DNA of 64,000 nucleotides from an uncultured Actinomycetes bacterium (GTDB lineage Bacteria; Actinomycetota; UBA4738; HRBIN12), in contig OY969934.1 in NCBI GenBank assembly GCA_963704725.1, positions 3,136,001 through 3,200,000 on the forward strand. The letters run 5' to 3'. The position numbers and the translations under genes were made by a program. Shown piece by piece: positions 45,898-49,109 of the stretch. Below the pieces are notes generated by a model that saw nothing but the letters and a program-made list of their open reading frames with translations, did not search any database and was not told the DNA's origin. The stretch's first letter is position 1, and every line of letters begins with the position of its first letter.

Positions 45898-46992
45898 ATG
45901 AGCGCGCGCGTGTGGAACTTCTCGCCGGGCCCGGCCATGCTCCCCCCCTCGGTCGTGGAGGAGGCCCGAGAGCACCTGCTCGCGCTCCCCGGGGCCGGGG
46001 CGTCGATCCTGGAGATCAGCCACCGTTCGCCGGCGTTCGACCGCGTCATCGAGGAGGCGGAGGCGAACCTGCGGGGACTGCTCGAGATCCCGGACACCCA
46101 CCGCGTGCTGTTCCTGCAGGGCGGGGCCTCGCTGCAGTTCTCGATGGCTCCGATGAACCTGCTCCGGGGGCGCGACGTCCCGGCCGCGTACGTCGTCTCC
46201 GGCTCGTGGGGCGCCCGGGCCGTGGCCGAGGCACGGAAGGAAGGCCCGGCCGAGATCGTCTGGGACGGGCGAGCGGACGGCTTCACGGACGTTCCCGATC
46301 TCGAGGCGCTGTCGGTGACCGGGGCCGCGTACCTCCATGTCACGTCGAACGAGACGATCCAGGGGGTCGAGTTCCCCCCCGGGTTCGAGCCGTCCTCCGG
46401 ATCGCCGTTGGTGTGCGACGCGTCGAGCGACTTCCTGTCCCGACCCCTGCCGATCGATCGCTACGGCCTGCTGTACGCGGGCGCGCAGAAGAACGCCGGC
46501 CCTGCTGGGCTGACGATCGCCGCGATCCGTGGTGACGTCCTCGGCAGGGTCCCCGAGGGCCTTCCCACCATGCTCGACTACCGCACGTTCTCCGAGCACG
46601 GCTCCCGCTACAACACGCCGCCCGTGTTCGCCGTCTACGTGCTGATGCTCGTCACCCGGTGGCTCCGCGACGAGATCGGCGGCCTCGACAAGGTGTTCGA
46701 GCGGAACCGGGAGAAGGCCCGCCTGCTGTACGAGGGGATCGACGCGAGCGACGGGTTCTACCGAGGCCACGCCGGCGCCGGCGCCCGGTCGCTGATGAAC
46801 GTCACGTTCCGGCTTGCCTCGCCGGAACTCGAGTCGGCCTTCCTGGAGGAGGCCGCGCGCTCCGACCTCGTCGAGCTACGAGGACATCGAAGCGTCGGCG
46901 GGATCCGCGCCTCGATCTACAACGCGATGCCGGTCGAGGGGGTTCGCGCGCTGCGCGAGCTCATGGACGGCTTCCGCTCGCGCCACGCCTGA
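45898..46992 (+). CDS. serC: Phosphoserine aminotransferase
   Basis: NFSPGPA, SHRS, GAQKNAGPAG, NTPP, GHRSVGGIRASIYNAM. Confidence 0.95.
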   Translation: MSARVWNFSPGPAMLPPSVVEEAREHLLALPGAGASILEISHRSPAFDRVIEEAEANLRGLLEIPDTHRVLFLQGGASLQFSMAPMNLLRGRDVPAAYVVSGSWGARAVAEARKEGPAEIVWDGRADGFTDVPDLEALSVTGAAYLHVTSNETIQGVEFPPGFEPSSGSPLVCDASSDFLSRPLPIDRYGLLYAGAQKNAGPAGLTIAAIRGDVLGRVPEGLPTMLDYRTFSEHGSRYNTPPVFAVYVLMLVTRWLRDEIGGLDKVFERNREKARLLYEGIDASDGFYRGHAGAGARSLMNVTFRLASPELESAFLEEAARSDLVELRGHRSVGGIRASIYNAMPVEGVRALRELMDGFRSRHA

Positions 46993-47056
46993 GCGAGGAA
47001 GCGCCGGGACCGACGCGGTGGGGGGCTCCCGCCCACGAGACCGGCCCCGGCGCAGC

Positions 47057-47266
47057 TCAGTCGATGAGGCGGTACCGCTCGGCGTCGCCCTCCGCCAGCT
47101 CGCGAGCGTACGAGTCGTGGATCACACCGCCGGACGTGACCGGCGTCCAGACCCAGATGCCGTTCCGGAGGTACTGCGCACCCTGTTCGAGACGATCGAG
47201 TCGCACGCGGAAGACCACCCCGTCGAGCTGGTAGTACCGCTCCTGGAGGGTGAGGGTCGTGTCCAT
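47057..47266 (-). CDS. Small hypothetical protein (69 aa) downstream of the peptide gene
   Basis: AGGAG RBS; aromatic-rich globular composition with high third-position GC. Confidence 0.7.
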   Translation of the reverse strand: MDTTLTLQERYYQLDGVVFRVRLDRLEQGAQYLRNGIWVWTPVTSGGVIHDSYARELAEGDAERYRLID

Positions 47267-47292
47267 CGGGCTCTCCTACCGGGGGTCTGCGT

Positions 47293-47328
47293 TCGAGGCG
47301 GGGGTTCCCCGGTACCCCCCGTCCTCGA
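47293..47328 (-). terminator. GC-rich hairpin just after the peptide gene
   Basis: TCGAGGCGGGGG...CCCCCCGTCCTCGA imperfect inverted repeat 5 nt past the stop. Confidence 0.5.
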
Positions 47329-47333
47329 TGGGC

Positions 47334-47438
47334 CTAGTGCTTCGGCCAGCTGGCCGCCCCCGCGACCAACATCGCCGCGAGCGTCCCGAGCGTGAGCGCC
47401 AGGGCGCGGGCCCGAACCTTCCATCCGCGTGCGCGCAT
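47334..47438 (-). CDS. 34-aa secreted peptide precursor, putative signalling pheromone (MRARGWKVRARALALTLGTLAAMLVAGAASWPKH)
   Basis: Below the ORF-track cutoff. AAGGAGG RBS 7 nt before ATG; basic n-region, hydrophobic h-region, AGA/GAA cleavage site, short polar tail. Confidence 0.75.
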   Translation of the reverse strand: MRARGWKVRARALALTLGTLAAMLVAGAASWPKH

Positions 47439-47472
47439 CGGACTGCCTCCTTCTTCCCGATGCTTCGCCGCG

Positions 47473-47501
47473 AATGTAACTTCATACTTGTCTCCCAGCA
47501 A
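47473..47501 (-). promoter_or_regulatory. sigma70-type promoter of the peptide gene
   Basis: TTGCTG-N17-TACATT. Confidence 0.65.
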
Positions 47502-47510
47502 CCTCACTGG

Positions 47511-47540
47511 TTAAGTTCGGCAGACTGCTGCCGAGGTTTA
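47511..47540. promoter_or_regulatory. Inverted repeat, putative HTH-TPR binding site
   Basis: TTAAGT-TCGGCAG-ACTG-CTGCCGA-GGTTTA; perfect 7-bp core just upstream of the peptide -35 box. Confidence 0.5.
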
Positions 47541-47585
47541 GGGGAGAATCCGAAATCAGGACTCGATGATGGGCGGAGGAGACGG

Positions 47586-48860
47586 ATGATCGGCCCCCGG
47601 CTCAAGCGGCTCCGGGTCGCGCGCGGCCTGACCCAGAAGGAGCTCGGCGAGCCTCGGTACACGCACGCCTACGTCAGCACGATCGAGGCCGGACGCCGTC
47701 ACCCGTCGCGAGAGGCGCTCGAGCACTTCGCCGCGAAGCTGGGCGTCGACGTCGAGGAGCTGTCGACCGGACGAGCCCCCGACCTGGAGGTTCGCCTCCG
47801 AGTCCAGCTCCAGGAGGCGCGCGTCCAGATCTCCGACGGCCGGTTCGACGAGGCCGACGCGGCGCTCCGCCGGGTGGTGCGGGACGCGCGACGCTACACC
47901 TTGCCAAGGCTCGAGGCGAAGGCGGAGGAGGTTCGAGGGCTGTGGCTCCAGCGCAGTGGAGAGCCGGAGGAAGCGCTCGAGCACTATCAGAAAGCGGAGG
48001 AGCTCCTGCGCGAAGAGGCGCCGACGGCTCGCGCCGACGTCGTCGATGGCAAGGCCACGTGCTTCGCGGCGCTCGGCGACGTCCGGTACGCGGTCTTCCT
48101 GCTGGAGAGCCTGCTCGACGAGATCGAGCGCGCCGAGCTGCGGGACCCGGACGCCCTCGTCCGTGTCCACGCCGGCCTTGTGTACTTCTACCTCGATCTC
48201 GGGCTCATGCCGGCCGCCGCTCGCTCGGCCGCCGAGCTCGACCGTCTAGCCCTTCGGGTCGCCGACCCCGCCAGGATCGCGCAGATGCACATGAACGTCG
48301 CGCGCCAGTACCTGGCGGACGGTCGTGTCGAGGACGCGACGGCGTCGCTGCAGCGCGCCGAGGACGCCTATCGCCAGCTGGGGCTCCTCACCGAGATGGG
48401 AGGCGCGCACCTCGCCCGCGGCTACGTCCTGTCAAGGCAGGGCGCGTTCGCCGACGCGCATCGCGAGCTCGAGGAGGCGCGGGACATCTTCGAACGCACG
48501 TCGAACACCAAGGACCTGACGCGGGCGCTGAACGAGCTGGCGCGCGTCGCCCGGCTCGACGATCGCCCCGCCGACGCTCGCATCCTCGTGGAGCGCTCGA
48601 TCGCACTCCTCGGCACCAGCGACGACCCGATCTCGGCGGAGGCGCACCTGGAGCTCGGCACCGTGCTGGCCGCGCTCGGGGAAGCGGACGCCGAGAAACA
48701 TCTCCGGATCGCCGTCGAGCTCTACGAGCGCACGGAGCTGGCGATCGGCCTCGCGGTCGCCTATCGCACGCTGGGCGATCTGTTGCGCGCCCACGGGGAC
48801 GAGGCGGGAGGGTCCGAGGCCTACCGCACGGGCATCCTGGCGATCGAGCCGCTTCTCTAG
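47586..48860 (+). CDS. XRE-HTH plus TPR transcriptional regulator (RRNPP-like architecture)
   Basis: IGPRLKRLRVARGLTQKELG...YVSTIEAGRRHPS, then about 350 aa of TPR-like helices; no NTPase; GGAGGAG RBS. Confidence 0.88.
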   Translation: MIGPRLKRLRVARGLTQKELGEPRYTHAYVSTIEAGRRHPSREALEHFAAKLGVDVEELSTGRAPDLEVRLRVQLQEARVQISDGRFDEADAALRRVVRDARRYTLPRLEAKAEEVRGLWLQRSGEPEEALEHYQKAEELLREEAPTARADVVDGKATCFAALGDVRYAVFLLESLLDEIERAELRDPDALVRVHAGLVYFYLDLGLMPAAARSAAELDRLALRVADPARIAQMHMNVARQYLADGRVEDATASLQRAEDAYRQLGLLTEMGGAHLARGYVLSRQGAFADAHRELEEARDIFERTSNTKDLTRALNELARVARLDDRPADARILVERSIALLGTSDDPISAEAHLELGTVLAALGEADAEKHLRIAVELYERTELAIGLAVAYRTLGDLLRAHGDEAGGSEAYRTGILAIEPLL

Positions 48861-48878
48861 ACGGGACCGTCCCGCGGA

Positions 48879-49109
48879 TCAGACGCGGATGATGGGACAG
48901 GTGAGCGTGCGCGTCACGCCGGGGATGTGCTGGATCTCGTCGATCAACTTGCCCAGCAGCTCCATCGTCTCCGCCTCGGCGCGGACGACCACGTCGTAGG
49001 GACCCGTCACCACCTGCGCGAGCTGCACGCCCGGGATCCGCTGCATCTCGTCCCCGACGCGTCGCCCCACCGTCACGTCCACCTGCACCAGCACGAACGC
49101 CTCGATCAT
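48879..49109 (-). CDS. Stand-alone Lrp/AsnC ligand-binding domain protein
   Basis: EAFVLVQV...VTGPYDVVVRAEA...IPGVTRTLTCP. Confidence 0.88.
   Translation of the reverse strand: MIEAFVLVQVDVTVGRRVGDEMQRIPGVQLAQVVTGPYDVVVRAEAETMELLGKLIDEIQHIPGVTRTLTCPIIRV

Follow-up and report, generated by a model that had tools for sequence, protein, structure and literature searches.

Quorum sensing by RRNPP systems, whose receptor subfamilies include Rap, Rgg, NprR, PlcR and PrgX, is regarded as a trait of the Bacillota and their mobile elements. NprR combines an N-terminal XRE-type helix-turn-helix (HTH) with nine tetratricopeptide repeats (TPRs) in about 420 amino acids (aa); nprX lies downstream of nprR and is co-directional with it, and its active peptide is internal to a pro-region and requires further processing. 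Rap has a three-helix bundle instead of an HTH and acts on response regulators, phr follows rap, and Phr requires extracellular proteases. Precursors of the SHP, ComS and PrgQ type, 22-35 aa long, begin with a basic N-terminus followed by a hydrophobic body, and their active part is at the C-terminal end. PlcR, with five TPRs in about 285 aa, works with the C-terminal peptide of a secreted precursor, PapR, in a system marked by a palindromic box and auto-activation; papR lies downstream and processing by NprB is required. In this study, we analysed a 64,000-nucleotide (nt) stretch of DNA (hereafter, the window) from an uncultured member of the Actinomycetota, part of a 3.45-Mb genome in a single contig (OY969934.1), in which the gene for a 34-aa peptide precursor diverges from that of a 424-aa HTH-TPR regulator. 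From sequence comparison and structural modelling, we consider it reasonably probable that these two genes form an RRNPP-like peptide signalling cassette.

We file the cassette as working like an RRNPP system; its build is nearest to NprR, and its gene arrangement is nearest to Rgg-SHP and PrgX-PrgQ. With NprR-NprX of the Bacillus cereus group it shares the build and size of the receptor, a small precursor of secreted type and a receptor that is itself a transcription factor. It differs from NprR-NprX in phylum, in the divergent orientation of the peptide gene and in a tail that forms the extreme C-terminus straight after a predicted peptidase site, and the sequence kinship between the two is that of generic HTH and TPR modules only. 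The Rap-Phr pairs of Bacillus and phage phi3T offer the best global structural matches, signals of pentapeptide size, a concave TPR face and several paralogous pairs per genome, but the regulator described here has an HTH, whereas Rap acts on response regulators and not on DNA, and identity to Rap is 10-14%. PlcR-PapR, also of the Bacillus cereus group, is similar in having an HTH-TPR transcription factor (2qfc, TMt 0.63), with a profile match of 1e-9 that lies mainly in the HTH. The closest sequence relatives of the TPR part are AfsR-type proteins of SARP-NB-ARC-TPR architecture (8k60 and 8jke, 2e-28 over residues 208-409). AfsR itself is about 990 aa long, with SARP and NB-ARC domains and no XRE HTH, and we know of no partner peptide gene for it; the likeness suggests where the TPR module originated, not what the regulator does. 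Rgg-SHP, ComR-ComS and PrgX-PrgQ, of streptococci and enterococci, share with this locus a divergent, very short precursor gene and a receptor made of an HTH and repeats. Their divergent small gene and receptor-controlled peptide promoter are in part described in the RRNPP_detector survey (PMC10075063), where SHP and PrgQ are said to exit via PptAB after intramembrane cleavage and not to be recognised as Sec substrates. The mature peptides of Rgg-SHP and PrgX-PrgQ are hydrophobic, whereas the tail here is polar and basic and follows a peptidase-I-type site, and Rgg repeats, unlike those of our regulator, are not canonical TPR_12. What is new in the cassette is the phylum, an actinobacterial receptor based on TPR_12 and a precursor without a pro-region.

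The regulator gene (47586-48860, plus strand) encodes a protein with matches to HTH_31 (residues 3-59, E 5e-12), TPR_12 (E 7.9e-21) and TPR_2 (4e-11) in Pfam; in NCBIfam, no family passed its cut-off, and the AfsR model scored 2.6e-13. Its AlphaFold2 model, built from a 54-row alignment, has a mean pLDDT of 94.5 and a pTM of 0.86 and consists of five HTH helices followed by 18 more that make up nine TPR-like repeats (residues 67-423). Among the top 50 Foldseek matches listed from the Protein Data Bank (PDB), the highest TM-scores belong to pheromone-bound Rap (8rtc, TMq/TMt 0.63/0.73), with further pheromone-bound Rap matches at 0.61/0.69 (8rsv) and 0.59/0.68 (4gyo); besides 2qfc, PlcR-PapR is matched by 3u3w (TMt 0.51). 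The original prediction had proposed such a search, and the modelled fold does resemble those of Rap and PlcR, at 10-18% sequence identity to the structural matches. The modelled shape of the regulator is therefore, overall, that of RRNPP receptors without specific sequence kinship: beyond generic HTH and TPR similarity, we detected no sign of descent from a known subfamily (Rap, Rgg, NprR, PlcR, PrgX, AimR or ComR). The original prediction spoke of an analogous signalling system in an actinobacterium. The evidence supports it, and "analogous" is the apt word, as opposed to a member by descent, because in sequence the receptor resembles generic or AfsR-type TPR domains at least as much as it does RRNPP receptors. 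The cassette was probably assembled independently of the Bacillota RRNPP families.

The peptide gene (47438-47334, minus strand, stop codon included) had escaped annotation. The original prediction had read from the DNA alone a 105-nt, 34-aa ORF (open reading frame) with an AAGGAGG ribosome-binding site, TTGCTG-N17-TACATT hexamers and a downstream hairpin, facing a 424-aa XRE-HTH and TPR regulator across a relatively AT-rich 147-bp spacer; all of these features are present, and the translation is as given there. The Shine-Dalgarno (SD) site, AAGGAGG, lies at 47452-47446, 7 nt 5' of the ATG, and the gene is single-copy in its own genome.

Comparative sequence evidence indicates that the small ORF is a real, conserved and previously unannotated gene, because it is paired with the regulator far beyond controls and carries a frame-specific coding signature. 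We compared 65 related loci from a named genome collection, all of them in metagenome-assembled genomes (MAGs) titled Actinomycetota, Actinobacteria or Actinomycetes bacterium, except for "uncultured bacterium", "Bacterium HR12" and one other candidate name. A strict peptide pattern (a basic residue, then 10 or more hydrophobic residues, aromatic-Pro/Glu and finally a short tail) found a divergent peptide ORF in 43/65 of these loci, compared with 0/65 on the regulator strand and 3/1544 control windows; a looser pattern found one in 50/65, and two further variant tails were spotted by eye. A criterion free of the motif (SD, basic start, hydrophobic run of at least 12, tail of at most 22 residues, divergent strand) detected a small ORF beside 68 of 92 distinct full-length regulators, as opposed to 14 of 460 control windows, with rates of 21/22 at regulator identities of at least 60%, 22/34 at 40-60% and 25/36 below 40%. 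The tail carries aromatic-Pro right after a small-x-Ala site for 62/92 regulators. Among relatives' loci with usable upstream DNA, 17/18 have a divergent ORF of 28-35 aa at 108-251 nt from the regulator start, and the pair is retained down to 27-34% regulator identity and in other Actinomycetota families. Regulator homologues do, then, have an adjacent ORF of 25-45 aa, as the original prediction had suggested looking for, and its conserved tail is small-x-Ala/aromatic-Pro.

The coding signature comes from 53 distinct peptide coding sequences, in which start, SD and stop are kept and G+C content at codon positions 1/2/3 is 0.62/0.56/0.84. Across 65 pairs, synonymous and nonsynonymous codon differences number 432/689 in the reading frame of the gene; the two shifted frames give 187/955 and 153/1003. 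Orthologous peptides are 73-82% identical within the genus and 39-50% identical in other genera. In all 67 peptide ORFs from the looser search, the selected start follows 4-6 nt of purine-rich, SD-like sequence; SD strength was itself among the criteria by which these starts had been selected. That the ORF is short and was overlooked by annotation, and that a strict promoter scan is empty, would suit a chance open frame in a conserved regulatory spacer that is never translated. We rejected this explanation, which we regard as barely conceivable, on the frame-specific substitution pattern and the control windows; the high G+C at third positions, the conserved start, SD and stop, and an amino-acid motif that is kept where the DNA has diverged all speak for coding.

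The RRNPP_detector survey (PMC10075063) also gives a five-part signature for RRNPP pairs, four parts of which are found here: a small propeptide (34 aa here, 26-48 aa in relatives), a receptor of 250-500 aa (424 aa here, with homologues matching over about 416-424 residues), TPRs in the receptor, and gene adjacency (divergent over 147 bp here, an arrangement shared by the 68/92 homologues above). The remaining part, secretion through Sec and signal peptidase I (or through PptAB in the case of SHP and PrgQ) with maturation to a short peptide, would fit by the anatomy of the precursor, as predicted from its sequence.

In this anatomy, a basic n-region leads into a hydrophobic core of about 16 aa, after which come a small-x-Ala site and a tail of five residues, S-W-P-K-H. 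In an alignment of 52 precursors (A3), P32 is invariant and R9 and A29 are nearly so. With the aromatic residue as reference, Gly, Ala or Ser occupies position -4 in 52/53 precursors and Ala occupies position -2 in 44/53, corresponding to the -3 and -1 positions of a peptidase site, and the order is small-x-Ala, one variable residue and aromatic-Pro. From this pattern we infer a signal-peptidase-I-type site, where a cut would free S-W-P-K-H. Of the two cleavage points put forward in the original prediction, after AGA or after GAA, the second, which leaves SWPKH, fits the conserved positions and the first is not the fitting one. Tails fall into three classes: a short x-W-P-x-x form (N/G/S-W-P) in the window's family; x-F/Y-P-W-x, where regulator identity is 27-34%; and a longer form with a Cys-Cys end, where regulator identity is 38-55%. 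Relatives outside the taxonomic class have a plain Ala-x-Ala site followed by tails of 11-17 residues with two Cys. Among individual loci (L054-L076 and L165-L170), some Cys-Cys ends come 2-3 residues past W-P, and other tails have two Cys 7-9 residues apart behind a plain Ala-x-Ala site. The sequences suggest that the Cys tails of sister clades are vicinal-disulfide, cyclic or metal-binding variants of the same signal.

With respect to export, the precursor may use either Sec or Tat (twin-arginine translocation); Tat is an option because the n-region is twin-arginine-like in many orthologues. Arg-Arg followed by hydrophobic residues was observed in L009, L040, L042, L044-L046, L050 and L070, and the n-region of the window's precursor has Arg-Ala-Arg, not Arg-Arg.

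The same anatomy bears on another explanation, namely that the product is an uncleaved, single-span membrane micro-protein, N-terminus inside and the short tail with its interfacial Trp-Pro outside, that controls the HTH-TPR regulator, for example by sequestering it or by relaying a signal from the envelope or from metals via its tail, which ends in His or Cys. The stretch from the invariant Arg to the aromatic-Pro, about 20 hydrophobic residues without indels, has the same length in almost all rows of A3, as a membrane span might; an aromatic residue at the end of the helix suits the membrane interface, W-P is conserved far more deeply than usual pheromone codes, and many tails end in His or Cys-Cys. 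The small residues at -3 and -1 are, however, conserved as in a peptidase site, Gly residues break the hydrophobic core as they do in signal peptides, and the distant relatives have a plain Ala-x-Ala followed by polar two-Cys tails. A basic N-terminus would also place the tail outside, yet the complex model described next puts that tail in the groove of a cytoplasmic HTH protein, and does so with its smallest error, although the model also shows contacts of the core residues 16, 19-20 and 22-29. On balance, we think a membrane micro-protein unlikely, but we retain it as a live alternative.

For complex prediction, the TPR part of the regulator (residues 62-424, 54-row alignment) was combined with the whole precursor (52-row alignment). 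The complex score was 0.83 (0.83, 0.78 and 0.83 in the individual runs), compared with 0.08 for the best of three controls; a mark of 0.83 is reached by 58/80 solved complexes and 2/110 mismatched pairs, a calibration that is only approximate, as custom alignments were supplied. The runs share at least 55% of contacts, with partner pLDDT of at least 59. Contacts of lowest error involve W31, P32, K33, H34 and S30 of the peptide and regulator residues 158, 197, 200, 203, 233, 236, 237, 240, 272-277, 280, 310 and 313. Most of these regulator residues fall on every second helix along the run of repeats, that is, on the concave TPR face of the complex model. The modelling thus supports the placement of the conserved tail S-W-P-K-H in the concave TPR groove, and the modelled position of W31-P32-K33-H34 favours the original prediction, which had proposed modelling the TPR domain with the peptide.

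Co-variation points the same way. When the 16 contact positions that are defined best are compared, each of the three tail classes has its own distinct residue set, so that tail class changes together with the modelled pocket, as the original prediction had also anticipated. Within the short W-P class, 10/10 His-ending peptides go with Gly at receptor position 273 and 5/5 with other endings go with His, Tyr or Ala; the sequences are related, and few independent events underlie this co-variation. Regulators without a peptide gene retain the pocket of their peptide-bearing sisters.

These results also bear on whether the secreted peptide is a ligand of the regulator at all. It could instead be an effector, such as an antimicrobial, metal-binding or surface-active peptide, with the regulator answering some other cue; pairing alone shows only co-inheritance, the two-Cys and Cys-Cys tails of relatives resemble small disulfide peptides, and 24/92 regulators have no peptide gene nearby. 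Against this stand the complex score relative to controls, the co-variation of groove residues with tail class and the absence of neighbouring genes in the window for modification, immunity or export, and an unmodified peptide of 4-6 residues is improbable as an antimicrobial. We hold the effector explanation to be distinctly improbable, but it, too, is retained as a live alternative. A related candidate, a cluster for a ribosomally synthesized and post-translationally modified peptide (RiPP) of the HaaA/HaaT type, was rejected: no modifying enzyme lies beside the precursor in the window or in relatives, and the match of the regulator to HaaT, a RiPP TPR accessory protein, falls far short (9.5e-6; 24 bits, where the cut-off is 1125).

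The spacer between the two genes (47439-47585) also has candidate regulatory features. Its G+C content is 55.8%, compared with 71.6% in the window, and among 3193 windows of 147 nt just 0.06% have a value this low. The predicted promoter of the peptide gene (47501-47473, minus strand) comprises TTGCTG (47501-47496), a 17-nt gap and TACATT (47478-47473). These hexamers are weak by consensus, and a strict consensus scan of 46900-49000 returned no promoter-like and no terminator-like site; the case for both promoter and hairpin rests on conservation. In support of the promoter, a TTGC-N-TAnAnT pair lies 32-39 nt from the peptide ATG in 20/25 orthologous, same-class spacers of the short N/G/S-W-P class.

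An imperfect inverted repeat, AAGTTCGGC-N8-GCCGAGGTT (47513-47538), lies immediately (11 nt) upstream of the -35-like hexamer, and its sequence and position make it a candidate binding site, or operator, of the regulator. In a mismatch-tolerant scan, the repeat takes the form (T)AAAGTTCGGC-N9-GCCGAACTT(TA) in related loci and AAGTTCGGC-N9-GCCGAACTT in the window's family, each with 0-2 mismatches. Its centre keeps a distance of 88-92 nt to the peptide ATG, while the distance to the regulator ATG ranges over 27-96 nt. Such anchoring to the peptide promoter is consistent with control of the peptide gene by the receptor. Alternatively, the repeat may act as an RNA hairpin (-13.6 kcal/mol). Spacers of the distant F-P-W class (L013-L019 and L079-L095) have a distinct conserved repeat, CTTAAC-N13-18-GTTAAG, centred 58-66 nt from the peptide ATG; therefore, the candidate operator changes with receptor clade.

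On the other side of the peptide gene, a G+C-rich hairpin (47328-47293, minus strand; -27.5 kcal/mol, without a T-run) stands between it and a 69-aa ORF and is a candidate terminator, attenuator or stabiliser. Its GGGGGTYCCGGGGRACCCCC-like core is kept in 21/21 related loci, with compensatory double changes in 3/6 consensus pairs. The hairpin may set the ratio of peptide message to read-through into the next gene.

Taken together, these observations would be explained as follows. The 34-aa precursor would be exported via Sec, or Tat, and signal peptidase I would cut after the conserved Gly-x-Ala to release a pentapeptide (S-W-P-K-H here) without a pro-region. The pentapeptide would build up outside the cell, re-enter through an oligopeptide permease and bind the concave groove of the nine-TPR domain of the divergent HTH regulator. 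The loaded regulator would then act at the inverted repeat immediately 5' of the peptide promoter. There it would control the peptide gene (feedback), any read-through to the 69-aa gene and, probably, its own promoter in the shared spacer. In this scheme, export and the point of cleavage, return into the cell, the sign of regulation and any dependence on density are presumed. With regard to re-import, four intact SBP_bac_5 genes in the same genome make it possible, as evidence of a non-specific kind. A further SBP_bac_5 gene outside the window (G000:C1:454940-455674) has TGA and TAG inside the match and is probably a pseudogene.

Several observations weigh against a peptide signalling cassette. 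Its support comes from sequence, comparison and modelling only. By the motif-free criterion, 24/92 regulators have no detectable small divergent ORF; a hidden Markov model (HMM) of the peptide found nothing convincing in the 3-kb flanks on either side of 13 loci without a WP-type peptide (best E 0.34), and nothing reaching the aromatic-Pro end in five such whole genomes, all MAGs. In the large-genome genus g101, a secreted-type small ORF occurs in 3/6 loci only, none with aromatic-Pro. A mature part of five residues without a pro-region is unusual for a Sec/signal peptidase I substrate, and aromatic-Pro is kept over very deep divergence, unlike fast-diverging pherotypes, as would also be expected of a membrane-interface anchor. 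With respect to the receptor, the best Foldseek E-values among the listed matches belong to eukaryotic TPR proteins, and a PDB profile search ranks the AfsR TPR first (2e-28), followed by designed and eukaryotic TPRs; RapF (4e-10), PlcR (1e-9, mainly HTH) and NprR (chain 4gpk, 2e-7 over residues 229-416 with the regulator-family profile) are far behind. As for the complex, the model was built with the whole precursor and not the free pentapeptide; contacts in the groove extend to the hydrophobic core, and the predictor may have memorised solved RRNPP complexes. Conservation at contact positions (0.51 and 0.56) is no higher than elsewhere in the TPR domain (0.54), which suits specificity positions but does not by itself count as support.

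Some individual loci are informative in their own right. Searched with the peptide HMM in all six frames, 15 loci (the 13 without a WP-type peptide plus L082 and L088) gave a single match, to L088, which has a variant tail (E 0.0028). In L065, the regulator homologue has an in-frame stop and no peptide gene lies nearby, possibly a decaying cassette. A second regulator copy in one MAG (L052, G009:C18:780840-782109) is read in two frames (residues 2-162 and 160-424), so that a frameshift is probable, yet the peptide gene that adjoins it is intact and has a slightly altered tail.

Positions 47057-48860 of the window hold three genes and one structured spacer. The third gene, a conserved 69-aa ORF (47266-47057, minus strand), runs in the same direction as the peptide gene directly past the hairpin and was not mentioned in the original prediction. 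It adjoins the peptide gene in the window's family (f1) only. Residues F19, R20, W38 and T41 are invariant in a 22-row alignment (A4), and the AlphaFold2 model is of a small, cytoplasmic-looking beta protein (pLDDT 89.1). No match was found in Pfam, NCBIfam, PADLOC or PHROGs, nor in the PDB by Foldseek at E<=0.001, and the best Atlas score, 0.76, is to unnamed clusters. As a candidate output gene, it probably encodes the immediate output of the cassette. Elsewhere, the gene after the peptide encodes a GerE-type or REC-GerE protein (F-P-W class), DUF5317 (some Cys-ending loci) or a DAO oxidoreductase (one locus). To judge from these gene orders, a constant regulator-peptide pair with a changing downstream gene looks like a signalling cassette. 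The pair is flanked in the window by a class-V aminotransferase gene (Aminotran_5), a gene for an AsnC-type regulator and an ADH-like gene.

The class to which this genome belongs was searched in 294 species genomes from one order and eight families. Regulator matches occur in 87/294 genomes at E<=1e-20 and in 66 at E<=1e-100, mostly as one copy per genome, and are patchy, with 0/38 in one genus and 10/12 in another. In a sample of the phylum (401 genomes), 35 match at E<=1e-25, 26 of these outside the class; by family, matches are found in 13/26 genomes of f9 (up to four matches per genome), 6/10 of f27 and 3/21 of f18, with single hits elsewhere. The f27 matches are all in one genus with fully complete genomes of 7.7-9.9 Mb, and whether this large-genome branch belongs to the cassette is uncertain. 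In one genome with four regulator matches (G423), the three copies examined each have a different peptide tail. At another locus (L168, G371:C30:199000-204500), two convergent regulator paralogues lie 76 bp apart, one with a divergent two-Cys precursor. Among the sequencing runs listed as containing sequence words of 46900-49000, none is of RNA; three soil DNA runs from one study contain a small share, a result without bearing on expression. We also considered, and rejected, a mobile-element, defence or phage origin: PADLOC and PHROGs returned generic HTH matches only, the neighbours are of housekeeping type, and a scan of viral contigs gave three loci that match HTH residues 2-59 only and no full-length relative of the regulator.

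There is also a broader possibility, one that we regard as evenly balanced: that an old, phylum-wide family of pheromone and cytoplasmic TPR-receptor pairs exists in the Actinomycetota, built independently from actinobacterial TPR_12 and HTH_31, in which signal peptidase alone would free a pheromone of 4-6 residues, sister clades would have longer and possibly cyclic Cys tails, and one genome could hold up to four private channels. The RRNPP_detector survey searched only Firmicutes and viruses, and its introduction describes Actinomycetota as typically signalling via enzyme-made small molecules (PMC10075063). Our literature search, of incomplete coverage and excluding the supplementary candidate lists of PMC10075063, found no description of peptide/TPR-receptor pairs in Actinomycetota, and an earlier mention is possible.

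Altogether, a conserved chromosomal pair in at least 66/294 genomes of one uncultured actinobacterial class would extend RRNPP logic to a second major Gram-positive phylum. If such a phylum-wide family does exist, genetically encoded peptide quorum sensing with intracellular receptors is no speciality of the Bacillota, and much of the soil Actinomycetota, including a genus with 8-10-Mb genomes, would use peptide signals beside small molecules. A signal peptide joined to a pentapeptide without a pro-region would be a very simple design, and one readily testable with synthetic peptides. The locus also illustrates that small ORFs missed by annotation can be a key component, and the cassette would supply predicted ligands and operators for regulators of as yet ungrown organisms to which no function has been assigned.

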